Of a DNA stretch of 64,000 bases, positions 1,943 to 63,548 are shown in pieces. Source of the stretch: an uncultured Alphaproteobacteria bacterium (GTDB lineage Bacteria > Pseudomonadota > Alphaproteobacteria > RF32 > CAG-239); assembly GCA_944391685.1 (NCBI GenBank), contig CALXUM010000009.1, positions 10,034 to 74,033 on the forward strand, given 5' to 3'. Made by a program: the position numbers and the translations under genes. The number at the start of each line of letters is the position of its first letter. The first letter of the stretch is position 1. A model generated the notes under the pieces. That model did not search any database, was not told the origin of the DNA, and was given only the letters and a program-made list of their open reading frames with translations.

Positions 1943-1997
1943 AAAAACGGTCGAAATTTGTGTGCTTCTATGTACATTAGATTTTGGCCGTTTTTTT
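1943..1997 (+). terminator. Long hairpin terminator after rplL
   Basis: aaaacggtcgaaat...attttggccg followed by T-tract. Confidence 0.7.
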
Positions 1998-2194
1998 ATG
2001 CTAGAATTGTTGACTTTGGGGATTTTAGAAGAAGTTCTTGTGGAAATATGACCTAGTGTTGAAAAATTTGACATCTATATAATGCGGTGTAGACTGGAAT
2101 TTGATTTTACTAAATAGCAAAAACATCAGATGATATTTTAAAAATTGCGGGCAAAACTTCTAATGTTAGAGCAATATTCGAAAGAGGACGATAA

Positions 2195-3102
2195 ATGGAA
2201 AAAATGAATGTTGACGGAGCAGTTTTTGAGGTTTGCGAAATTAATTCACACTTGAAAGTGGCGGCTTTTCCCCAAATGGCCCAAAAAATAAAAAAAGGCT
2301 GTGGTGAAAATTTTTTGTCGGTGATGGATGGGTATGCTTGTGATTTGCTAAAGTTGCCGTTGGAATACAAAACGCCACCGATGTTTTCTTTTGTAGTTTT
2401 GCCGAGAGGTGATGTATTTAAGCAATTTAGCGGTTGCCCGTTTCCTCATGGAATGGCGGCGGCAAGGTTTGCGGTTGATGCCAATTATCCGGTGCCGTTG
2501 GCAGTTGATGAGGTTTGGTTTGAGCATGGATTTATGTCTGAGGAAAGTATAGAACGAAAAGTGGGACTTTGTCATGAACTTGCACATACATTGCATAGTG
2601 CATGGTTTGATAATAAAGAGGTTTTATGTGAAGGGTTTGCCGAATTGTTGCCTCATTATCTGATGAACCTTGAAAATCAGAATGCCAGACATCGTCAAGT
2701 GATAGAAGCTTTTACTCAAGATAAAATGCGGACAGTTGCAGATATTGATCAAAATGGAATGTTTTCATCCGAAGATTTAAAGCAAAGAAATAAAAACACA
2801 CAAGAGAGAGAAGGTTATATGTCTGTCTATTTGTGGATGTTGGGGTATACCAAGCGTGTGGAAAAAAGTTTGGTTTTGATAAGTTTGAAGCAGTTAACTT
2901 AATGTTATCTGAGTTTGAAAAATTAAGCAAAAATCCTAATGTTTCGGTCTTTGAGGAAATGGCCAAGTTAGTTGGTTTATCTTCAGATATTTTAACAAAT
3001 ACAATACAAATGCAAAAAGAAGGACAAGCGTATGTGCTTAAACTTGACAAGTCTAAACAAGTTATTTCGCTGAAATATAAAAAAGATTTTTTGAACAGAT
3101 AA
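2195..3102 (+). pseudogene. HExxH zinc-metallopeptidase-like protein split by a frameshift
   Basis: CHELAHTLH then EGFAE; ORFs 2195-2902 and 2833-3102 join if one A is added to the A6 run at ~2862-2867. Confidence 0.6.
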
Positions 3103-3245
3103 AGTTTTATTTAAAAACTTGACAAAAATGTTGCGAGAGTTGTTTTTTTGTGCTATAAATTCAGTAGAAAGAAAAATTATTTTGGAGATATTAATCGCTT
3201 GCAGATTGTTCACTCCATGTTATGTTTAATTTAAAATATAATGAA

Positions 3246-3458
3246 ATGGGACTTTTTAATTTTTTTTCGTCTTCAAAAAATAAGGACGATTATTCCGAAA
3301 TGCGTAGAAGACGCGAATGCAAACATGAACATCTATGAGCCGAAGTTGCTGAGTTTTGTGGTCCGAATCGTCGATATGAGATTTATCAAGAATGTCTTGA
3401 TTGTGGGGCGAGAATTTATGTTGGATGGGAAACTATTGCCGAGCATGAGCAACAATAG
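3246..3458 (+). pseudogene. Small zinc-ribbon-like protein (CKH...CLDCG) with internal TGA at 3336-3338
   Basis: Manual translation MGLFNFFSSSKNKDDYSEMRRRRECKHEHL*AEVAEFCGPNRRYEIYQECLDCGARIYVGWETIAEHEQQ; a terminator follows directly. Confidence 0.5.
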
Positions 3459-3460
3459 GT

Positions 3461-3498
3461 AAAACACCCTTTTGCAGAAAATGCAAAAGGGTGTTTTT
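3461..3498. terminator. Bidirectional intrinsic terminator
   Basis: aaaacacccttttgca-gaaaa-tgcaaaagggtgttttt perfect inverted repeat. Confidence 0.85.
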
Positions 3499-3584
3499 GT
3501 TATTTGCCTGTTTTATGGTTAGGATGATTTTTTACAATCACTACTTGCGTTTTTACAAAATAAGTTGCTATTCCTCTCTTGACT

Positions 3585-4298
3585 GTGTAGCTGATGGTAA
3601 AAAGATAGACACCTATGGAGTTGACCATAGCGGTTTTACAACAAAGGACGAAATAGAATATCAAATGGCTCGGCAAAAAAGAGAAAATAGTTTGATAGAA
3701 GGTTATAACAACCAAGGAATAACAGAAAATTACCCTTTAATCAGGCACCAACTTTTGGGGCAAGGCTGATAATAACTACGGTTTCGGCAGTTCAAATATT
3801 GCCGATAATGTTAAAGTTGTCGCAAATCAACCACTAAATATTTCACAGCATCATGATGATTTGAAAGATGATTCAAAATATATTCCAAAATACTGGGAAA
3901 CGGCTGCTGATGGTGAAAAAGTGTGGAATTATGTACAGCAACAAGAAGGCAATGTCACTCCTAAAAAACAAAATCCTTTAAGTTATGTTTGGTCAGCCGG
4001 TAAAACATTTCCTGATATGCTTATAAATTATTTTGATTTGGCGAATAAAAATTTAACTGATAAATACAAACATGCATATATAAATTGTAGTGCTGCTCAA
4101 AACGGTAAAGGAGGTGCAGATGTTGCAACTGGCATTTCTAATGTTTGAGAATGGTATGATGTAAAGTCAAAAGCCAATACTATTGACAGTAGTGAGGCTG
4201 ATCAGTATGCTAATAAGATAGGAAGGCTTCTTGGGACAAAATATCCAGATGAGGATTGTGATGAAATTGTCAAAAAATACATTAAAAAGTACTATTAA
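3585..4298 (+). pseudogene. Repeat-headed cassette with serum-amyloid-A-like C-terminal domain (+1 frameshift at ~3740, TGA at 4146)
   Basis: DMLINYFDLANKNLTDKYKHAYINCSAAQNGKGG...ISNV*EW...SEADQYANKIGR aligns by eye with SAA DMWRAYSDM...DKYFHARGNYDAAKRGPGG...ISDARE...DSLADQAANEWGR. Confidence 0.65.
3621..3815 (+). repeat. Coding repeat copy A (DHSGF...EIEYQMARQ...GTNFWG...YGFGSSNIADN)
   Basis: 195-bp direct repeat of 5002-5196; 22 mismatches by manual count, mostly synonymous. Confidence 0.95.
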
Positions 4299-4461
4299 AA
4301 TAGCTGGAAAAGCTATTGGAATTGCTTTTTTGTTATATTTGCTTTTCTGTTTTGTTTCTGTTGTTATTTTGATATTTGGGTCCGGCTGGAGCTAAATTAA
4401 TATTACAGTTAAAGATAAGTCCAACAGTTTTTTTGAAACAGATAAACATGTAACTACATAA
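4261..4461 (+). pseudogene. Small single-TM protein overlapping the end of the SAA-like cassette (TAA at 4393; either 44 aa or interrupted)
   Basis: MKLSKNTLKSTIKIAGKAIGIAFLLYLLFCFVSVVILIFGSGWS* followed by 21 more open codons. Confidence 0.35.
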
Positions 4462-4477
4462 TCAACAAATTTAATTC

Positions 4478-4512
4478 AAAACACCGCTGATATTTCATTA
4501 GCGGTGTTTTTT
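4478..4512. terminator. Bidirectional terminator between convergent units
   Basis: aaaacaccgctga-loop-ttagcggtgtttttt. Confidence 0.8.
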
Positions 4513-4519
4513 GTTTTGA

Positions 4520-4759
4520 TTATTTATCAACCAGCAAGATTTCAACCTTTTTGCCGTAGTATTTTGCCAAAAGATGCAAAGCACCTAAGTTGACGCTGCC
4601 GCGGCCGAGTTCCAGATTATCTAAAATTCGTTGCGGGATGCCGGTTTCTTCACACACTTGATTAAAACGTAGTTGTTTGGAAATTCTGATATCGTGTAAT
4701 CTGGCGGCAAGAGTTTTCCTGCGTCGTCTTAAGTCATTTTTATCTTGTTTATAGTTCAT
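4520..4759 (-). CDS. XRE/Cro-C1-type helix-turn-helix protein, copy 1
   Basis: LHDIRISKQLRFNQVCEETGIPQRILDNLELG HTH pattern; GGAG RBS; 74/79 aa identical to 63264-63503. Confidence 0.9.
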   Translation of the reverse strand: MNYKQDKNDLRRRRKTLAARLHDIRISKQLRFNQVCEETGIPQRILDNLELGRGSVNLGALHLLAKYYGKKVEILLVDK

Positions 4760-4787
4760 TTTCTTAACTCCCTGATTTCTTATTTAT

Positions 4788-4820
4788 AAAAAGAAACCGC
4801 CTTAATTTAACTTAAGGCGG
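4788..4820 (-). terminator. Terminator/attenuator between the C4-like RNA and the HTH gene
   Basis: Minus strand ccgccttaa-gttaaa-ttaaggcgg-tttcttttt. Confidence 0.8.
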
Positions 4821-4948
4821 GGAGTTGACAACTGATCCAACTGACAGTCCGGGTTATTCGTGCATAGCCTTATATCCCCGGCTCCCCAAAGGGAAGTGGT
4901 TTGTTGGAGAAGGAGTTGTCACACTCCACAGCCGGAACACCCGACTGC
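4819..4948 (-). ncRNA. C4-antisense-like RNA with upstream a1/b1 target hairpin, copy 1
   Basis: GGGGAG...CTCCCC closing stem; a'=TTGTCA and b'=GTTGGA complementary to upstream a1=TGACAA and b1=TCCAAC; covaries with copy 2. Confidence 0.75.
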
Positions 4949-4955
4949 GAAAGTG

Positions 4956-4984
4956 ATTATAAAAAATATTGCTTAAAATGCAAT
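4956..4984 (-). promoter_or_regulatory. Sigma70-type promoter with overlapping ATTGC-N7-GCAAT palindrome
   Basis: TTGCAT-N16-TATAAT, identical in both module copies. Confidence 0.65.
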
Positions 4985-5001
4985 TAATTTATGAAAGATT
5001 T

Positions 5002-5196
5002 TTGACCATAGCGGTTTTACAACCAAGGATGAAATAGAATATCAAATGGCTCGGCAAAAAAGAGAGAACAGTTTGATAGAAGGCTATAACAACTAGGGAA
5101 TAAGTAAAGACTATCCTTTAATCAGGCACCAACTTCTGGGGTAAGGCTGATAACAATTATGGTTTCGGCTCTTCCAATATTGCCGATAATATTAAA
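5002..5196 (+). repeat. Coding repeat copy B (5'-truncated, TAG at 5094, +1 frameshift at ~5121)
   Basis: Direct repeat of 3621-3815. Confidence 0.95.
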
Positions 5197-5269
5197 AACA
5201 AACAAAACCAAGATATAAGTTCCGCATTATATCCCAAACCAAATAGGAAACGATGCCGCAAGTTATAAA

Positions 5270-5947
5270 TTGGCTCAGAATAATCAAGCTAATATGGTGA
5301 GTGATGCAAATACATTATCTGAAAATAATTTATCTGATGATGAATTAATAGAAACCATGTATCCCATTATAAAAGAGCATGAAAATGCAAAACCTTTTCC
5401 ATATTATGATACAAGGTGGAATAAAACTGTTGGCGTTGGTAATAATATTAACAATAAAAAAGATTTTTACGGCACAAATTGGTCTGCTGACAATATGCCT
5501 GCAAACAAACAAGATATAGACTCTTGTTTAGAAAATCTTGAAAAAGAAAAAAACAGAATACAGAAGGAACGAATTTTAGCAGGACTAAATCCTAATGAAC
5601 ACAATTATAAGGCTGATTATTTTGCTCAATTTTGTAACATAAATATTGATGACGATACAATGCGTCAAATGAGTATTGACCATATGAAAGGTGATTTAAA
5701 AAGTTTACGCAAATTAATTCAAAATTTTGATGAACTGAGTTTAAATAAAAAAATGGTACTCATGGATTACATGTATAATTTAGGACCAAATAAATTTACA
5801 GAAAAGGAATTTTCTAATTTTATTAAAGGTGCAAGAACTAATAATCTTGATTTAATGCTAAAACATGACCATCGTTTAGGTATTGACGAAGGACGTAATA
5901 TCTGGACGGATAAAACTCTTAGAAAAGATTTACCAAATAAAAAATAA
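5270..5947 (+). CDS. T4-lysozyme-like (GH24) muramidase domain, C-terminal part of the repeat-B cassette
   Basis: E-x8-D-x5-T triad (HE-NAKPFPYY-D-TRWNK-T-VGVG) and LMDYMYNLG motif. Confidence 0.75.
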   Translation: MAQNNQANMVSDANTLSENNLSDDELIETMYPIIKEHENAKPFPYYDTRWNKTVGVGNNINNKKDFYGTNWSADNMPANKQDIDSCLENLEKEKNRIQKERILAGLNPNEHNYKADYFAQFCNINIDDDTMRQMSIDHMKGDLKSLRKLIQNFDELSLNKKMVLMDYMYNLGPNKFTEKEFSNFIKGARTNNLDLMLKHDHRLGIDEGRNIWTDKTLRKDLPNKK

Positions 5948-5981
5948 CATAAAATAATATATGGTGTGGAGTTTGGTCTAA

Positions 5982-6437
5982 TTAATCAAGCTCCACAGCA
6001 TATGTACTCTCTCCATAAATTGAAGTATCTGGTTTATAATAATAATACTCTTTCACATAAAGAGAAGTGCATTTTCCTTCATCGTCTGTCGTAAAACATC
6101 TATCAAGTTGATATTTATAAATATCATAATGTGTACCCTTTCCTCGCCAATAAATATCTTTACATTTTAAGACAATATAGTTTTCTTCATTTTTTAATAG
6201 TTTACAAGGAACGACGGTCCACCCGTTTTCATGTTTGTCATCTTTGGTATGAATGATAGAATTTGAATATGTCATTGAGGTTGGGGTTAGATAAGTTTCT
6301 TTGCTGCCAACGGCAAAAGGAGCCAATTGTTTATAAAACAGGGGGTTAACAAATTTTTCTTCTTTATTTTGCGTAAATAAACTACAAGCGGTTGTTATCA
6401 GCAAAACAGCCATACAGGCAAACAAGACTTTTTTCAT
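5982..6437 (-). CDS. Lipoprotein of unknown function (candidate immunity protein)
   Basis: MKKVLFACMAVLLITTAC signal peptide with lipobox; four further Cys; convergent with the lysozyme gene. Confidence 0.7.
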   Translation of the reverse strand: MKKVLFACMAVLLITTACSLFTQNKEEKFVNPLFYKQLAPFAVGSKETYLTPTSMTYSNSIIHTKDDKHENGWTVVPCKLLKNEENYIVLKCKDIYWRGKGTHYDIYKYQLDRCFTTDDEGKCTSLYVKEYYYYKPDTSIYGESTYAVELD

Positions 6438-6785
6438 CACCAAATTCCGATAAAGTTATTTGCCTAAAAGCTTAATCTCAAAAGTTGAAGATATTGTTAA
6501 GTCTAAAAAAGGTTTTTTAGGGAGAAATAAAAAATTTGATTTTGGAGTGATTTTTTACTTGCCAGAATCGAAAAAGTGAGTCTATTATCCCCCCGAATTT
6601 GGTCGCTTATGAGCGATGATTGCATGCAATTATTTTAGGTTTTCTCGCCAAGAGGAGCGGTTTTCCTACGGTTTGGCGGGTTTTTTCTTTTTTTTATATA
6701 TATAAACGTTTAACCTTCTGCGTGCGGGTTTCAAAAATTTTTTGATAGGATGGCCGCAGAATTTAACCACAAGGATTAAAATACA

Positions 6786-9700
6786 ATGAAAGAATCTTAT
6801 ACGAGCAAGAGACGTGTAAGAAGAAACTTCGGTCGAATCGATGCCGTTGCCGACATGCCGAGTTTGATTGAGGTTCAGAAAGGGTCTTATGACAGTTTTA
6901 TTCAGGCTAACGGGGCTGAAAAATGCGAGTTTGGTCTGGAAGAAGTTTTCAAATCAATTTTCCCGATTAAAGATTTTTCCGGAAACGGCGAGTTGGAATT
7001 TGTCAACTATGAATTGGAAGAGCCAAAATATGATGTTGACGAATGTATCAAACGCGATATGACTTATGCCGCTCCGGTTAAGGCTACTTTGCGTTTGGTG
7101 GTTTGGGATACCGATGAGGCTACCGGTGCAAAATCTATTCACGATATTAAAGAACAAGATGTTTATATGGGTGATATTCCATTGATGACGGAAAAAGGCA
7201 CCTTTATTTTTAACGGAACGGAACGCGTTGTGGTTTCTCAAATGCATCGTTCTCCGGGTGTGTTCTTTGATCATGATAAAGGAAAAACCATATCTTCAGG
7301 TAAATATTTGTTTGCCGCCAGAATTATTCCGTATCGCGGTTCTTGGTTGGATTTTGAGTTTGATGCCAAAGATTTGGTTTATGCTCGTATTGATCGCCGC
7401 CGTAAATTGCCGGTAACTTCTCTTTTGTATTCATTGTATTCAAAAGAAACCGAAGAAAAAATTGCCAAGCTTGCCAAACAAGGCAAAAAAATTGATCCGG
7501 CAGAAATTAAAGGTATGGATAAAGAAGAAATTCTTAACTACTTTTATGATGCCGATATTTATGTTGCCGATAAGAAAAACTGGAAAGTTAAGTTTGTTCC
7601 GGAACGCATGAAAGGCGTTAAGTTTGAGTTTGATTTGATTAATGCCAAAGATGGTAAAGTTGTTTTGGAACAGGGTAAAAAACTTTCTCCGCGTGTGGCT
7701 CAAAAATTGGCTGATGACGGTTTGGAGTATTATAAAGTTACTCCCGAGCAGTTAATCGGTAAGTTTTTGGCAAACAATGTTGTGGTTGCAAAAACAGGTG
7801 AAGTTTTGGCTGAAGCTGGTGATGAAATCACTCAGGAAATGTTGGATAAGTTTGCTCAAAACAAGATCGGCGAAATTAAAACCTTGTTTATTGACGGGGT
7901 TAATGTAGGACCGTATATCCGCAACACTTTGGCAGCAGATAAAAACAGCTGTCGTGAAGAGGCTCTCTTGGATATTTATCGTGTTATGCGTCCGGGTGAT
8001 CCTCCGACGTATGAGACTGCCGATCAATTGTTCCATGCTTTGTTCTTTGACAAAGATCGTTACGATTTGTCATCAGTTGGTCGTGTTAAGATTAATGCCG
8101 CATTTGATATTCCTTTTGAGGAAGCTCCGGATACTTGCGGTATTTTGCGTAAAGATGATATTTTGCTTATTGTTAAAAGATTGGTTGAATTGCGTGACGG
8201 CAAAGGTGAGGTTGATGATATTGACCACTTGGGTAACCGTCGTGTTCGTTCAGTTGGTGAGTTGATGGAAAATCAATATCGTATGGGGTTGCTCAGAATG
8301 GAAAGAGCCATTCGTGAAAGAATGAGTTCTGAAAATCTGAACAATGTTAAACCTCAGGATTTGATTAATGCCAAACCGATTGCCTCTGTTATCAGAGAGT
8401 TTTTCGGTTCTTCTCAATTGTCTCAATTTATGGATCAGAACAACCCGTTGTCAGAAATTACACACAAACGTCGTTTGTCTGCATTGGGCCCCGGTGGTTT
8501 GTCTCGTGATCGTGCCGGATTTGAAGTCCGCGACGTGCATCCGACACACTATGGTCGTATCTGCCCGATTGAAACACCGGAAGGTCCGAACATTGGTTTG
8601 ATTAACTCATTGTCAACTTATGCCAGAATCAATAAATACGGCTTTATTGAATGTCCGTATCGTAAGGTTGTTAACGGCGTGGTTACCAATGAGGTTGTTT
8701 ATTTGTCAGCCAATGAAGAAGGTAAGTTCAAAATTGCCGAAGCTAATGCCAAGGTTAAAGAAGACGGTCATTTTGAAGATGACTTGATTGCTTGTCGTAA
8801 GGCCGGTGAATTTGAGTTTGCTCATCCGGAAGAGATCAACTTTATTGACGTTTCGCCAAAACAATTAGTTTCTGTGGCTACGGCATTGATTCCGTTCTTG
8901 GAAAACGATGACGCTAACCGTGCATTGATGGGTTCAAACATGCAACGTCAAGGCGTGCCTTTGTTGCGTTCGGAAGCTCCGTTGGTTGGTACCGGTGTTG
9001 AGGCTGTGGTGGCCAAAGATTCTGGTGCTACGGTTGTTTGTAAGGCAGACGGTATTGTTGACGCCGTTGATGCTAACCGTATTGTGGTTCGCTCAAAAGA
9101 TGAGCATGCCGCCGATGCCGGTGTTGAAATTTATCGTTTGCAGAAGTTCCGTCGTTCAAACCAAAATACCTGCATTAACCAAGTTCCGTTGGTTAAGGTT
9201 GGTGATGAAGTTAAAGCCGGTGATATTATGGCTGACGGACAATGCACCGATATGGGAGAATTGGCCCTTGGTAAAAACGTTTTGGTTGCGTTTATGCCTT
9301 GGAACGGTTTGAACTACGAAGACGCTATTTTGTTATCGGAAAGAATTTCTCGTGATGATGTGTTTACATCTTTGCATATTGAGGAATTTGAAGTTATGGC
9401 CCGTGATACTAAATTGGGTCAGGAAGAAATTACCCGCGATATTCCTAATGTTGGTGAGGAAGCTTTGCGTAACCTTGATGAAGCAGGTATTGTTTACATC
9501 GGTGCCGAGGTTAAGGCCGGTGATATCTTGGTTGGTAAAGTAACTCCTAAGGGAGAGTCTCCGGTTACTCCGGAAGAGAAATTGTTGCGTGCAATCTTTG
9601 GTGAAAAAGCCTCTGATGTTCGTGATACTTCTTTGCGTGTTCAGCCAGGTATTGAAGGTATTGTGGTTGATGTTCACGTGTTCTCTCGCCGCGGTGTTGA

Positions 9701-10961
9701 GAAAGACGAGCGTGCTTTGTCAATTGAGCAGGAAGAAATTTCACAATTGGCTAAAGACCGTGATGACGAAATTGCAATTATTCGCCGTAACGTTGAAGCT
9801 CGTTTGAAATCTATGTTGGTGGGCCAAAAGGTTGTTGATGCTCCAAAGGGAACTTTGGCTAAAAATGCTGAGATAACCGAAGCTAAATTGGCTGAAATTC
9901 CTTCTTCACAATGGCGTAAGATCGTGGTTAAAGACGAAAAGACCATGGCAAACATTGAAGAGTTGCTCAATGCTTTTGATGCTCGTTTGGAAAAGATTCA
10001 AAAACACTTTGACAATAAGGTTGAAAAAGTTCAACGCGGTGATGATTTGTTGCCTGGTGTATTGAAAATGGTTAAAGTATTTATTGCTACCAAACGTAAG
10101 ATTCAATCCGGTGATAAAATTGCCGGACGCCATGGTAACAAAGGTACGATTTCTCGTGTTTTGCCGTTGCAGGATATGCCTTATATGGAAGACGGTACAC
10201 CAGTTGATATCGTGTTGAACCCGTTGGGTGTGCCTTCACGTATGAACGTGGGACAAATTTTGGAAACTCACCTTGGTTGGGCCGCTCAAAAGCTTGGTCA
10301 ACAATTGAACGAGTTGTGGGAGCAAGTTAAAGCCGGTCAAAAGACCGAAAAAGATTTGCGTGCCAAACTTAAAGATATTTATGGTGAAAAACAGTATAAA
10401 CGTGAAATTGCCAATATGAGTATGGATGATTTGGATTTGATGATTCCAAACCTCAAAAACGGTGTGCCGATGGCTACTCCGGTATTTGACGGTGCCTCAG
10501 GCGATGATATTAACGAAATGCTGAGTAAGGCCGGTTTGCCGACATCAGGTCAGATTGACTTGTATGATGGTCGTACTGGTGAAAAGTTTGACCGTAAGGT
10601 TACCGTTGGTATCATTTATATGATTAAACTTCACCACATTGTTGATGAAAAAATGCACGCTCGTTCGGTTGGTCCTTACAGCTTGGTTACTCAACAACCT
10701 TTGGGTGGTAAGGCTCAGTTCGGCGGACAACGTTTCGGTGAAATGGAAGTTTGGGCTTTGCAAGCTTATGGTGCGGCTTATACTTTGCAAGAAATGTTGA
10801 CCGTTAAGTCAGATGATGTGAACGGACGTACCAAGGTTTATGAGGCTATTGTTCGCGGAGAGGATAGCTTTGAGGCCGGTATTCCTGAATCATTCAACGT
10901 TCTGGTTAAGGAAATCAAATCTTTGTGCCTGAACGTAGAACTGTTGAACGAAGAAGTTTAA
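6786..10961 (+). CDS. rpoB: RNA polymerase beta subunit
   Basis: [46 protein letters not shown]. Confidence 0.99.
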
Positions 10962-47280: not shown

Positions 47281-48600
47281 ATGGAAGAAACTTTATTTTC
47301 AACACAGGTTAAGAGGCCTTTGGCCGACAGATTACGTCCTAAAAGTCTTGATGAGGTAGTAGGACAGGATCATGTTGTGAGTGAAAATGCTCCGTTAGGA
47401 AGAATGGTTAGATCGGGGAAGATTTCTTCATTTATTTTGTGGGGACCTCCAGGATGCGGAAAAACTACGATTGCCAGATTGATTGCTGAAAATACTAAGC
47501 TCTATTTTGAACAAATATCAGCTGTTTTTTCCGGTGTGGCGGATTTAAAACGGGTTTTTTCTTATGCTCAGGAACGCAGAGCGAGTCAAGGGCAAGGAAC
47601 ATTGTTATTTGTTGATGAAATTCATCGTTTTAATAAATCACAGCAAGATGGTTTTTTGCCATATGTAGAAGATGGCACGATAATTCTTGTCGGTGCAACT
47701 ACGGAAAATCCTTCATTTGAATTAAATGCGGCTTTGTTGTCAAGATGTCAAGTGTTTATGCTGAATCGTTTGAGCGAAGAAAATTTTGAAGAACTTTTGC
47801 AAAGAGCTGAAAGAGAAATCGGTAAAAATTTGCCAGTTGATGATGAAGCACGTACTTTTATGAAAGAAGTGGCTGACGGAGACGGAAGATATATTTTGAA
47901 TCTGGCAGAGAGTGTTTGGAATTATGCCCAAAACGGTGAAATTTTTGATAAAGAAAGTATTATGAAAATTATTCGTTCGCGAGCTCCTATATATGATAAG
48001 GGGCGCGACGGACATTATAATTTGATTTCGGCCGTGCATAAATCTTTGCGAGGGTCAGACGTGGATGCTGCTTTATACTGGGTAGCGAGAATGTTGGAAT
48101 CGGGAGAAGATCCGAAGTATTTATTAAGAAGAATGACGCGTTTTGCAATAGAAGATGTTTCTTTGGCTGATCCTAACGCGATTACGCAAGCAATAGCTTG
48201 TTGGGAGACTTATGATCGCTTGGGCTCGCCGGAAGGAGATTTGGCAATTATGCAGTTGGCGGCATATTTGGCAACAGCACCAAAGTCGGTCGGGGTATAT
48301 AAGGCAATGTATGCGGCAAGGGATTTGGCCAGAAAAACAGGATCATTAATGCCGCCTAAGAATATTTTGAATGCACCTACAAAATTGATGAAACAGCTTG
48401 GATATGGTGAAGATTATGAATATGATCCAGATTGTGAAGATGGTTTTTCAGGAGCAAATTATTTTCCGGACGGAATGAAAAGGGTTAAGCTTTATTATCC
48501 GGTTGACAGGGGTTTTGAGCGAGAGGTGAAAAAAAGGGTGGAATATTTTGACCGCCTGAGAGCTGAAAAACAAGCCATGAAAAAGAAAAAGGAAGAGTGA
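47281..48600 (+). CDS. rarA: Replication-associated recombination protein A
   Basis: PLADRLRP, WGPPGCGKTT, DEIHRFNKSQQD, ISAVHKSLRGSD. Confidence 0.97.
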   Translation: MEETLFSTQVKRPLADRLRPKSLDEVVGQDHVVSENAPLGRMVRSGKISSFILWGPPGCGKTTIARLIAENTKLYFEQISAVFSGVADLKRVFSYAQERRASQGQGTLLFVDEIHRFNKSQQDGFLPYVEDGTIILVGATTENPSFELNAALLSRCQVFMLNRLSEENFEELLQRAEREIGKNLPVDDEARTFMKEVADGDGRYILNLAESVWNYAQNGEIFDKESIMKIIRSRAPIYDKGRDGHYNLISAVHKSLRGSDVDAALYWVARMLESGEDPKYLLRRMTRFAIEDVSLADPNAITQAIACWETYDRLGSPEGDLAIMQLAAYLATAPKSVGVYKAMYAARDLARKTGSLMPPKNILNAPTKLMKQLGYGEDYEYDPDCEDGFSGANYFPDGMKRVKLYYPVDRGFEREVKKRVEYFDRLRAEKQAMKKKKEE

Positions 48601-62965: not shown

Positions 62966-63022
62966 TTGCCGAGCCATTTGATATTCTATCTCGTCAATGG
63001 AAAGAGAAGCCATTATACTCAA
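62966..63022 (-). repeat. Degenerate third copy (C) of the coding repeat
   Basis: Minus strand gacgagatagaatatcaaatggctcggcaa (DEIEYQMARQ) matches repeats A/B and abuts the module at the same junction as copy B. Confidence 0.85.
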
Positions 63023-63039
63023 AAATCTTTCATAAATTA

Positions 63040-63068
63040 ATTGCATTTTAAGCAATATTTTTTATAAT
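63040..63068 (+). promoter_or_regulatory. Sigma70-type promoter with ATTGC-N7-GCAAT palindrome
   Basis: TTGCAT 63041-46, TATAAT 63063-68. Confidence 0.65.
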
Positions 63069-63075
63069 CACTTTC

Positions 63076-63202
63076 GCAGTCGGGGGTTCCGGCTGCGGAG
63101 TGTCGAAACTCCTTATAGGTTAATACTCCTCTTTTGGGGAGCCGGGGATATAAGGCTATGCACGAATAACCCGGACTGTACCTATACAGTTTCGAACTCC
63201 CC
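63076..63202 (+). ncRNA. C4-antisense-like RNA with upstream a1/b1 target, copy 2
   Basis: a1 TCGAAA (63103-08) with a' TTTCGA (63190-95); b1 TATAGGT (63114-20) with b' ACCTATA (63180-86); GGGGAG/CTCCCC stem. Confidence 0.75.
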
Positions 63203-63234
63203 GCCTTAATTTGTTTTTAAGGCGGTTTCTTTTT
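63201..63234 (+). terminator. Terminator/attenuator upstream of the HTH gene
   Basis: ccgccttaa-loop-ttaaggcgg-tttcttttt; only the loop differs from copy 1. Confidence 0.8.
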
Positions 63235-63263
63235 ATAAATAAAGAAATCAGGGAGTTAAGAAA

Positions 63264-63503
63264 ATGGACTATAAACAAGACAAAAATGACTTAAGACGAC
63301 GCAGAAAAACTCTTGCCACCAGATTACACGATATCAGAATTTCCAAACAACTACGTTTTAATAAGGTATGTGAAGAAACCGGCATTCCGCAAGGACTTTT
63401 AGATAATCTGGAACTCGGCCGCGGCAGCGTCAACTTAGGTGCTTTGCACCTTTTGGCAAAATACTACGGCAAAAAGGTTGAAATCTTGCTGGTTGATAAA
63501 TAA
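63264..63503 (+). CDS. XRE/Cro-C1-type helix-turn-helix protein, copy 2
   Basis: 74/79 aa identical to 4520-4759. Confidence 0.9.
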   Translation: MDYKQDKNDLRRRRKTLATRLHDIRISKQLRFNKVCEETGIPQGLLDNLELGRGSVNLGALHLLAKYYGKKVEILLVDK

Positions 63504-63510
63504 TCAAAAC

Positions 63511-63548
63511 AAAAAATGGCGGCTTTAATTTCTAAGCCGCCATAAAAT
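63511..63548. terminator. Terminator between HTH copy 2 and the convergent gene
   Basis: atggcggctt-loop-aagccgccat. Confidence 0.75.

Follow-up and report, generated by a model that had tools for sequence, protein, structure and literature searches.

Why should two RNA leaders in one bacterial genome be almost identical everywhere except in the segments through which they pair? The question arises in a stretch of 64,000 nucleotides from an uncultured alphaproteobacterium (contig CALXUM010000009.1 of assembly GCA_944391685.1, positions 10,034 to 74,033; hereafter the window), in which a small cassette occurs twice. Each cassette is composed of a promoter-like site, a leader RNA of ~163 nt, an intrinsic terminator, a Shine-Dalgarno (SD) sequence and a small gene for an XRE-type helix-turn-helix (HTH) protein. 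Covariation among relatives shows that two short segments of the leader, a1 and b1, pair with the segments a' and b' further downstream, and that these are the only hypervariable parts of the element. The distribution of the segments shows further that a and b together make up a two-part address, unique to each cassette within its genome. We interpret the leader as an alphaproteobacterial variant of the C4-type riboregulators, in which each copy would target itself through its own address with negative feedback; we put the probability of this interpretation at roughly 55%.

The features of the two copies are listed below in the order of the transcript. Entries with no other source given were read from the sequence; MFE denotes the minimum-free-energy fold of the leader, and anti-SD the segment complementary to the SD.

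Copy 1
4956..4983 (-): promoter-like site, with -35 hexamer TTGCAT (4978-4983), a 16-nt spacer and -10 hexamer TATAAT (4956-4961)
4788-4950 (-): structured leader, ~163 nt, 5' of the 79-amino-acid (aa) XRE-type HTH gene
4927..4949 (-): hairpin P1, the 5' hairpin, arms CGCAGUCGG / CCGGCUGUG; in the MFE fold
4912..4927 (-): hairpin P2, GGAGU/ACUCC, with a1 in its loop
4916-4921 (-): a1, TGACAA, complementary to a'
4903-4908 (-): b1, TCCAAC, in the linker, complementary to b'
4882..4896 (-): hairpin P3, CUUCCC-UUU-GGGGAG; in the MFE fold (regions 1:2 of the relay described below)
4816..4887 (-): C4-like domain, which folds alone into a C4-like shape
4849..4881 (-): hairpin P4, with internal loops GAUAUAAG / CGAAUAA; from the MFE fold and family conservation
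4832..4847 (-): hairpin P5, CUG..CAG, whose loop holds b'; from the isolated-domain fold
4836-4841 (-): b', GTTGGA, in the P5 loop
4826-4831 (-): a', TTGTCA, flanked by P5 and the closing-stem 3' arm
4819..4825 (-): 3' arm of the closing stem and anti-SD, ACUCCCC; paired with the SD in the MFE fold
4788..4820 (-): intrinsic terminator, CCGCCUUAA...UUAAGGCGG followed by UUUCUUUUU; from a terminator scan
4768..4772 (-): SD, GGGAG, 8 nt 5' of the ATG of the HTH gene
4520..4759 (-): HTH gene, 79 aa, XRE-type; from the list of open reading frames (ORFs)
4478..4510: hairpin terminator 3' of the HTH gene, with A/T runs on both strands; from the terminator scan

Copy 2, inverted relative to copy 1
63041..63068 (+): promoter-like site, TTGCAT, 16 nt, TATAAT
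63074-63234 (+): leader, 5' of the ORF 63264..63503
63075-63097 (+): hairpin P1, also in the MFE fold
63097-63112 (+): hairpin P2, also in the MFE fold
63103-63108 (+): a1, TCGAAA
63114-63120 (+): b1, TATAGGT
63136..63205 (+): C4-like domain; from the isolated fold and a sub-threshold RF02221 alignment
63180-63186 (+): b', ACCTATA
63190-63195 (+): a', TTTCGA
63196-63202 (+): anti-SD, ACUCCCC
63201..63234 (+): intrinsic terminator, also in the MFE fold
63264..63503 (+): HTH gene, 79 aa, with its SD at 63251-63255

A 23-nt stretch of the scaffold occurs exactly twice in the window, with no occurrence expected (100 shuffles), and the ~600-nt cassettes around it have a mean column identity of 92%. 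The differences are concentrated in the pairing segments: 7 of 29 a/b columns are identical between the copies, against 120 of 135 in the remaining leader, and yet a1:a' and b1:b' are perfectly complementary in both. Each leader folds stably, with an MFE of -71.3 kcal/mol (z -4.8) for copy 1 and -77.3 kcal/mol (z -6.0) for copy 2, and in neither case was any of 200 shuffles as good. An earlier reading of the window, made from sequence only, had described a near-invariant scaffold whose pairing segments differ and stay complementary, and its description holds in detail. All four a/b segments of each copy were found where it placed them, with a1 in the loop of a GGAGT/ACTCC hairpin, b' in a CTG..CAG loop, and a' beside a CTCCCC arm that overlaps the terminator. 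The terminator scan calls the latter at 4820-4797 (-), nine pairs followed by TTTCTTTTTA, and the overlap consists of the final two C of CUCCCC, which belong to the 5' arm of the terminator. The same reading spoke of a duplication; this is right for the two copies of the window and understates the copy number, as the genome holds four close and three divergent copies.

Covariation and the two-part address

Covariation was assessed in 98 matches aligned to R1, a covariance model built from the four close copies of the source genome and one relative; the set amounts to 95 distinct rows. The nested structure tested comprises P1, a1:a', b1:b', P3, P4 and the terminator. Across it, 96.9% of cells are paired, compared with 69.2% after shuffling of columns (0 of 500 shuffles reach the observed value) and 37-47% after sliding of the partner, and 40 of 43 pairs undergo double-sided changes. 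The a1:a' helix is paired in 98.8% of cells and the b1:b' helices in 94-95%, with double-sided changes in 7 of 7 pairs in either case. Such changes also affect 7 of 9 pairs of P1, all 9 pairs of the terminator and all 5 stem pairs of P4, a hairpin whose loop motifs are conserved family-wide. P2 contributes a single covarying pair, 37:53, which is AU in 67 sequences and UA in 16, and a P3 helix of at least 5 bp is possible in 85 of the 95 relatives. The closing stem covaries at the level of classes (GGGGAG/CUCCCC, GGUGGAG/CUCCACC, GGCGGAG/CUCCGCC and GGAGGA/UCCUCC), and a closing helix of 6-7 bp can form in 90 of 95 sequences. In a MAFFT alignment of 59 C4-like domains its 3' arm falls out of register because the length of a' varies. 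Covariation over further copies, which the sequence-only reading had named as a check, is thus present in the a/b helices across 95 distinct relatives.

The source genome (1.57 Mb in 25 contigs, with coordinates given as G000:C followed by the contig number) contains four close copies, with identities of 100, 90, 88 and 86%. Their b helices all differ (CCAAC/GTTGG, TATAGGT/ACCTATA, TACAAG/CTTGTA and GCTAGA/TCTAGC), and they carry two variants of a. The genome has three divergent members besides. The first of these, at G000:C1:95224-95409 (+) (1423-1608 of locus L081), is found by R1 with 25.1 bits and by the Rfam models for C4 (RF01695) and sRNA-Xcc1 with 30.8 and 33.8 bits, both below their cut-offs. 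Its a/b address is its own, its anti-SD/SD pair is AACAUCC/GGAUGUU, and it precedes the gene of a PEGA-domain lipoprotein, not an HTH gene. The others, at G000:C15:18662-18745 (+) (37.2 bits) and G000:C2:131554-131626 (+) (35.6 bits), were detected only through sub-threshold sRNA-Xcc1 matches. In both, a1 is presented by a hairpin, a' matches it, b1 matches b', and GCC or ACC comes after the closing stem; the reading frames nearest downstream are non-HTH. The C15 member has the same a as the C1 copy and a different b, and two of the three divergent copies carry the covarying pair AACAUCC/GGAUGUU.

Within the taxonomic family of the source organism, R1 finds the element in 129 of 151 sampled genomes, from 21 of 23 genera (E<=1e-5), often with at least 10 copies per genome. 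There are at least 887 matches in all, no more than 19 candidates having been scored in any one genome. Matches were obtained in 127 of 151 genomes of an order-level sample and, in a class-level sample, in 7 of 149 genomes of other families, all of them small genomes; there the elements precede lipoprotein or outer-membrane-like genes, a pilin-like gene, an HTH gene and others. Several relatives have tandem arrays, in which 2-3 complete leaders spaced ~215-260 nt apart stand before a single HTH gene (L098, with three copies, L096, L097, L099/L056 and L100). The leader is a very large family, beyond simple duplication. In relatives G127, G071, G211, G210 and others, many cassettes come to within a few hundred bases of a contig end; the repeat probably breaks short-read assemblies, so that the copy numbers are lower bounds.

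High copy number, frequent location at contig ends and insertion between unrelated housekeeping genes are also what one would expect of a non-functional dispersed repeat, similar to a miniature inverted-repeat transposable element, whose palindromes only mimic RNA helices. We hold this to be most improbable. The element has a fixed orientation relative to the promoter-like site, terminator, SD and ORF, its G-U pairs are confined to the sense strand (pair 49:228, for instance, has 35 AU-to-GU changes), and at least 21 of 23 sampled genera are populated, with compensatory changes in every helix of the tested structure.

Within genomes, a is drawn from a small alphabet and b from a larger one, and the two are freely recombined. 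Among 80 elements in seven genomes, 67 element pairs share a, 20 share b and none shares both; shuffling b within genomes leads one to expect 3.0 shared (a,b) pairs (P=0.034), or 5.0 if one mismatch is allowed in b (P=0.004). Neighbouring leaders of a tandem array have a or b in common in four of five arrays (neither in L100), never both. Three hybrid elements, L065:590-759, L095:1501-1662 and L078:343-504, whose own a1/b1 mismatch their own a'/b', suggest recombination between 5' and 3' halves. The b' of L065 matches b1 of L066, another element of the same genome, which makes cross-regulation between the two possible.

We searched the source genome for a..b sites, with a and b within 25 nt of each other. 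Copies 2 and 4 found only their own element, and 12-nt addresses gave chance-level matches only. With no a..b site beyond chance elsewhere, the sole partner of a'/b' is therefore the a1/b1 of the same address. The sequence-only reading had proposed orthogonal RNA switches in a minimal cassette: the addresses do look orthogonal within genomes, and its simple pair of switches has to be replaced by a very large family of leaders.

Against the trans-acting riboregulator stands a purely cis-acting leader, in which a1:a' and b1:b' would be long-range helices of the ordinary kind. Nothing would then act in trans, and the segments would vary simply because these helices have to pair without having to keep a given sequence. 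Such a leader would control both termination and access to the SD, and its input could be a protein (the HTH protein itself, or Hfq, which the source genome encodes), a ligand at the P4 loops, or temperature. Both helices are nested within the MFE fold of every copy examined, the conserved and apparently unpaired P4 motifs GAUAUAAG and CGAAUAA resemble a binding site, and the source genome is without a second target of the same address, the 13-nt address of copy 2 being unique to its element there. Drift, however, fails to explain how 6-7 consecutive pairs are replaced in copies that are elsewhere 87-96% identical. Nor does it account for the way in which a limited repertoire of a and b types is reused in combination, or for the absence of shared (a,b) pairs within genomes. 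Moreover, a1 and b' are each displayed in a hairpin loop and face a single-stranded partner, an arrangement typical of fast antisense recognition, and the relatives of the same fold, C4 and IsrK, act in trans according to the accessible parts of PMC5320573 and PMC4825925. We judge a purely cis-acting leader to be rather unlikely.

The diversity and non-redundancy of the addresses might also point to a library of immunity, in which a'/b' would target a/b sites on invading phages or mobile elements, while a1/b1 keep the RNA inert or are relics. C4 does serve superinfection immunity in phages P1 and P7, and a similar idea is raised for Acinetobacter small RNAs (sRNAs) in the available part of PMC5320573. 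Relics, however, would not persist with a1/b1 complementarity in ~95-99% of cells. The cassettes are situated among housekeeping genes, outside prophages, and in 63 of 82 cases the RNA is physically tied to an SD with its ORF. When 2.9 million viral contigs were scanned with a motif pattern, 17 loci were obtained, none matching R1; the pattern demanded exact GATATAAG, CGAATAA and CAGTT and spans only part of the family, which makes this weak evidence. On balance such a library is very unlikely.

Probable kinship with C4-type RNAs

The leader is probably related, if distantly, to C4 and sRNA-Xcc1, as judged from its fold and layout, from sub-threshold Rfam matches and from an intermediate copy that links the families. 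When excised, the 67-70-nt domains of both window copies adopt a three-way topology like that of phage P1 C4; the domain of copy 2 alone forms a closing stem and two hairpins at -24.1 kcal/mol (z -2.7). Both copies present a stem enclosing two hairpins, with b' looped and a' single-stranded, as in the C4 architecture. In copy 1 the domain consists of the closing stem GGGGAG/CUCCCC, P4, P5 with the b' loop, the single-stranded a' and a 3' GCC. Alignments to the sRNA-Xcc1 and C4 models use the same helices as the isolated-domain folds. The closing helix opens with GG in 83 of 95 sequences, and GCC or ACC comes next in 71 of 95. In phage P1 the counterparts of the GG start and of RCC are the RNase P site and a trailing ACC, C4 RNA being excised by RNase P at a GG motif (PMC5320573, in its accessible part).

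The phage P1 record AF234172 has a1 at 48255-61, b1 at 48269-76 and the c4 RNA at 48343-48419, then a2, b2 and icd. Phage P1/P7 C4 (RF01695) and the present leader share the succession of promoter, a1, b1 and a domain that holds b' in a hairpin loop and leaves a' unpaired by the closing stem. With phage P1 there are in common the three-way fold of the domain, its GG 5' start, the ACC or GCC after the stem, and similar distances of a1 and b1 from the -10 box; in P1 and P7, as here, specificity is altered via few a/b bases. The a' region of copy 1, UUGUCAAC (4824-4831), is one base off that of phage P1, CUGUCAAC, and both follow the CAG(U) that ends the second hairpin. The differences are equally clear. 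In phage P1, a2/b2 overlaps the ribosome-binding site (RBS), the closing stem has 17 bp and the regulated genes are icd/ant; here, a terminator directly follows the domain, the stem arm is an anti-SD, the closing stem has 6-7 bp, the gene downstream encodes an XRE-type HTH protein, and the context is that of chromosomal housekeeping genes, with many copies per genome. Neither the region after the terminator nor the genome-wide a..b search revealed a P1-type a2/b2 target overlapping the RBS. The sequence-only reading had noticed no a2/b2 site downstream, and indeed nothing 3' of the terminator matches a or b. Its statement that this is the layout of phage P1/P7 C4 stands for the a1-b1-domain order and the fold, and falls short where the Rfam C4 threshold is concerned.

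The check with the Rfam C4 model that it had suggested was unsuccessful: the whole window gave no match to any Rfam family at gathering thresholds, and its region 4400-5200 no C4 match at E<=10. As a positive control, RF01695 recovers phage P1 c4 with 68.8 bits (gathering 45 bits). Over the source genome this model has one match, on the C1 divergent member (30.8 bits, E=4.4e-4). The sRNA-Xcc1 model, RF02221, has six, of 17.8-37.2 bits and all below its 53-bit gathering score. Three coincide exactly with the C4-like domains of close copies, one of the four being left out, and the other three fall on the divergent members. Copy 2 is among them (G000:C9:73169-73243, that is, window 63136-63210; 21.2 bits, E=0.26) and copy 1 is unlisted. 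In 20 family loci, RF02221 gave six sub-threshold matches in four loci, in three of which they lie within the R1 match. The isrK model had no match in window region 4400-5200 or in the 20 family loci. Having a C4-like fold and layout and missing the Rfam thresholds, the leader is filed as C4/sRNA-Xcc1-like, a non-member by Rfam criteria.

The best-matching Rfam model, sRNA-Xcc1, describes RNAs of integron cassettes and islands of Xanthomonas and Xylella. Its alignment covers the C4-like domain from end to end and takes in the AAUA / GAAUAA loops of P4 as well as the ACC that trails it. The accessible portions of PMC12189769 and bioRxiv 10.1101/2025.06.18.660453 present sRNA-Xcc1 copies of Xylella and Xanthomonas as tandem or cassette-borne upstream of small genes: the former has multi-copy tandem clusters, comparable to the tandem arrays found here, and the latter a co-orientation upstream of a small gene, symE, again as here. 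The host class differs, being Alphaproteobacteria in our case, and so do the downstream genes, which are HTH, lipoprotein and others.

Multiplicity of this kind has a precedent. The available part of PMC5320573 reports C4-like sRNAs from Acinetobacter that are present in multiple copies and vary in their specificity loops: like the present leaders, the 'Group 1' sRNAs of Acinetobacter baumannii are many per genome and differ mainly in the specificity loop, and they have extended 5' regions and apparent processing at a GGW motif. Unlike the present leaders, the 'Group 1' sRNAs are matched by the Rfam C4 motif and described as phage-derived, and that part of the article describes no cis a1/b1, two-part address or HTH coupling. 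The c4-a1b1 motif, which we know by name and by a table row of PMC2864571, is listed there, without an Rfam accession, for gamma-proteobacteria and phages; by its name it is the same arrangement, a conserved RNA element with a1/b1 sites upstream of c4.

In the literature on C4-like RNAs, as far as the accessible text goes, we found no account of this alphaproteobacterial subfamily or of its coupling to XRE genes, no covarying two-part cis address without repeats per genome, and no anti-SD relay of the kind set out below, c4-a1b1 being represented by the table row only. The RNA family is uncatalogued, in that no Rfam 15 family reaches its threshold, and still it is among the most abundant structured RNAs of these bacteria. 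It would extend C4/sRNA-Xcc1-type RNAs from phages and beta- and gamma-proteobacterial mobile DNA to housekeeping contexts of alphaproteobacterial chromosomes.

A putative anti-SD relay and a candidate mechanism

The place of the missing a2/b2 site appears to be taken by an anti-SD relay. Four regions are readable in the leader: region 1 is the 5' arm of P3, region 2 is GGNGGAG, region 3 is CUCCNCC, the anti-SD directly after a', and region 4 is the SD. The MFE fold contains 1:2 (P3) and 3:4 (anti-SD:SD) together with a1:a' and b1:b'; the C4 fold contains 2:3. Pairing of 1:2 and 3:4 would hide the ribosome-binding site, and pairing of 2:3 would free it. In copy 1, ACUCCCC has three complementary segments: GGGGAG, the SD GGGAGUU and the 5' arm of P2. 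An anti-SD:SD helix of at least 6 bp (range 6-9) is possible in 82 of 86 leaders, and it covaries in distant members (CAUCC/GGAUG and CUUCC/GGAAG). We also considered an antiterminator, formed by UAAGGC of P4 and the 5' arm of the terminator; it is present in copy 1, is not conserved in relatives as judged by eye, and was rejected.

The accessibility of the SD was calculated for 75 leaders with a partition-function model, which ignores kinetics and the terminator. In unblocked leaders the probability of an unpaired SD has a mean of 0.33 and a median of 0.29, and exceeds 0.5 in 19 of 75. Blocking a1/b1 lowers the mean from 0.33 to 0.12 and the number above 0.5 from 19 to 0, and raises the expected anti-SD:SD pairing from 3.0 to 4.6 bp. 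With a'/b' blocked, the mean is 0.10, again with 0 of 75 above 0.5. The SD closes upon a1/b1 blocking because, in the GGAGU class, the cis a1:a' helix can extend into GGAGU:ACUCC and compete for the anti-SD. This extension was rejected as a universal feature, belonging to the GGAGU class only. The model suggests address-specific repression.

A mechanism can be proposed along these lines. Most transcripts would stop at the terminator and be trimmed to a C4-like RNA, probably by RNase P at GG, as in phage P1. This RNA would pair in trans, via a' and b', with the a1/b1 of read-through transcripts of the same address only. In doing so it would displace the cis a1:a' helix and free the anti-SD to close the SD, so that translation of the HTH gene would be repressed. 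The outcome would be negative feedback specific to the address, or 'immunity'. What we infer here is the action in trans and the sign of the effect, the sign being the least certain step.

Several results weigh against this interpretation. The alignment was fitted to the structure of the model, which favours that structure, and kinship among the sequences inflates such counts as the double-sided changes. P5 and most of the closing stem are invariant and receive no support from covariation, which is uninformative for P5 because its stem hardly varies. Cis and trans pairing are indistinguishable by covariation, and a1:a' and b1:b' being nested, the MFE fold explains both as ordinary cis helices. 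The terminator looks strong, and the read-through that the mechanism needs is hypothetical. The count of unique addresses may be biased, as short-read assemblies collapse or break identical repeats. The anti-SD:SD helices are scarcely longer in their own combinations than when cross-paired (6.34 versus 6.05 bp), the two values being nearly equal because both partners are almost invariant within the order. Competition of the 5' arm of P2 for the anti-SD, as predicted by the model, holds in the GGAGU class (52 sequences) and not in the GGUGU class (15). In the model the SD is closed in nearly all states, including the 'processed' one, and there is therefore no clear ON state. As to C4 kinship, all copies stay under the gathering score of every Rfam family, the region of copy 1 (4400-5200) has no C4-clan match even at E<=10, and R1 run against the phage P1 immI region with filters off leaves c4 unmatched.

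With the opposite sign, the short RNA would activate translation of the HTH gene by breaking the cis fold, giving positive feedback or a threshold switch, after the manner of IsrK, a C4-related RNA of Salmonella Gifsy-1. The accessible part of PMC4825925 describes for IsrK a read-through mRNA that is translationally silent, in which the sRNA sequence in cis is paired within the mRNA, and a short RNA whose target in trans is the long isoform of the same RNA. The order of promoter, sRNA, terminator and ORF recurs here, and with the sRNA sequence paired in cis the mRNA would be inactive as in isrK-orf45 (same source and extent): a terminator is called, the SD lies ~16-20 nt past the U-tract, and according to the predictions it is sequestered when the full leader takes its default fold (median probability of a free SD 0.29). 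IsrK differs in that it pairs with ~30 nt within the downstream ORF and activates translation, the partner sites in our case being upstream, in the leader. In modelling, moreover, blocking of a1/b1 or of a'/b' closes the SD further (0.12 and 0.10, with 0 of 75 above 0.5), and C4 is annotated as a repressor in the phage P1 record. We regard activation as unlikely.

If each C4-like RNA recognises its own leader only, each paralogous XRE regulator would have a private RNA feedback channel, and new channels would arise by recombination of a and b modules. The family would then be a natural combinatorial library of orthogonal RNA switches, and the leader could in addition provide a tiny self-spreading cassette of RNA and HTH gene with copy control or exclusion. 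It is a tentative extension, and a doubtful one, that a single gut-type alphaproteobacterium of reduced genome contains up to ~20 mutually orthogonal riboregulators, each addressed to itself. The wiring would be of a different kind, with address helices and an anti-SD relay instead of a direct block of the RBS at a2/b2. Dozens of near-identical scaffolds per genome, with few types of a, more types of b and no (a,b) combination used twice, amount to a natural experiment: antisense re-programming without cross-talk is directly testable with reporters, and the leaders could provide ready-made orthogonal riboregulator parts.

The HTH gene and the surroundings of the cassette

The HTH protein of copy 1 matches Pfam HTH_31 with E=1.6e-5 and 25.5 bits, under the 27-bit cut-off, and HTH_3 with 20.1 bits (cut-off 23). 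The closest solved structure is that of an XRE-family regulator, 6jq1 (E=0.0029). The HTH protein of copy 2 is 94% identical to that of copy 1. Of 201 genomes from the same family, 84 have homologues, often in many copies, with roughly 10-20 paralogous small XRE regulators in a 1.5-Mb genome, and the leader is found upstream of nearly all copies examined (29 of the 84 genomes, loci L030-L080). Conversely, among 82 elements picked by the RNA search alone, 63 have an SD-preceded ORF directly downstream, and at least 33 of these 63 ORFs match Pfam HTH_31 at E<=0.01. The other 19 include six upstream members of tandem arrays and three elements cut by contig ends.

The hexamers TTGCAT and TATAAT of the promoter-like site are unchanged in all four close copies of the genome and in the relative locus L030. 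A consensus promoter scan made no call at the site of copy 1, because its -35 hexamer fits the consensus at only 3 of 6 positions. The hairpin terminator after the HTH gene is kept in the close copies c1, c3 and c4.

The cassettes of the window have as neighbours rplJ, rplL, rpoB, mrdA-like and rodA-like genes and ORFs of unknown function, copy 2 being situated after the rodA-like gene. A scan of eight neighbour ORFs against PHROGs gave matches only to L10 and L7/L12, in families of unknown function, and Pfam identifies these two neighbours as the ribosomal proteins L10 and L7/L12; the HTH protein of the window was itself also matched. The earlier impression that phage genes are missing nearby is borne out by these eight ORFs, which are without a match of phage function. 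An antirepressor-type context of phage immunity was not encountered either, the downstream gene being an HTH regulator and the neighbours housekeeping genes. Conserved neighbour genes were sought among the loci of relatives, and none was found: before the element as well as past the HTH gene stand housekeeping genes that are unrelated and mostly convergent or divergent. The neighbours being unrelated and without a phage-function match, the unit is therefore a stand-alone cassette of RNA and HTH gene, ~0.5 kb in length.

The genes rplL and rpoB are normally adjacent. In the window, ~4.8 kb of accessory DNA (1977-6780), which holds copy 1, separates rplL (1546-1920) from rpoB (6786-10961); in the relative L030, a cassette likewise adjoins rpoB. 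Together the two cassettes form an inverted repeat of ~550 bp, 4507-5057 (-) and 62966-63516 (+), whose arms lie 58 kb apart. Segments of the arms are 89-100% complementary, and they enclose rpoB, rpoC and many genes up to the mrdA/rodA-like ones. The repeat could mediate a large inversion.

The same accessory DNA contains a repeated gene head, in 3449-4148 (+) and 4995-5947 (+), with 89% identity over 195 nt (3621-3815 vs 5002-5196). A second leader copy at the 1381-nt offset of this repeat was considered and rejected, as the repeat spans only sequence upstream of the promoter. The head encodes ...DHSGFTTKDEIEYQMARQKRENSLIEGYNN in one frame and SGTNFWGKADNNYGFGSSNIADN in another, followed by differing C-terminal parts, and the two look like frameshifted or modular gene fragments with variable tails. 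One of the tails (3861-4148) matches the Pfam family Serum amyloid A (PF00277, 34 bits).

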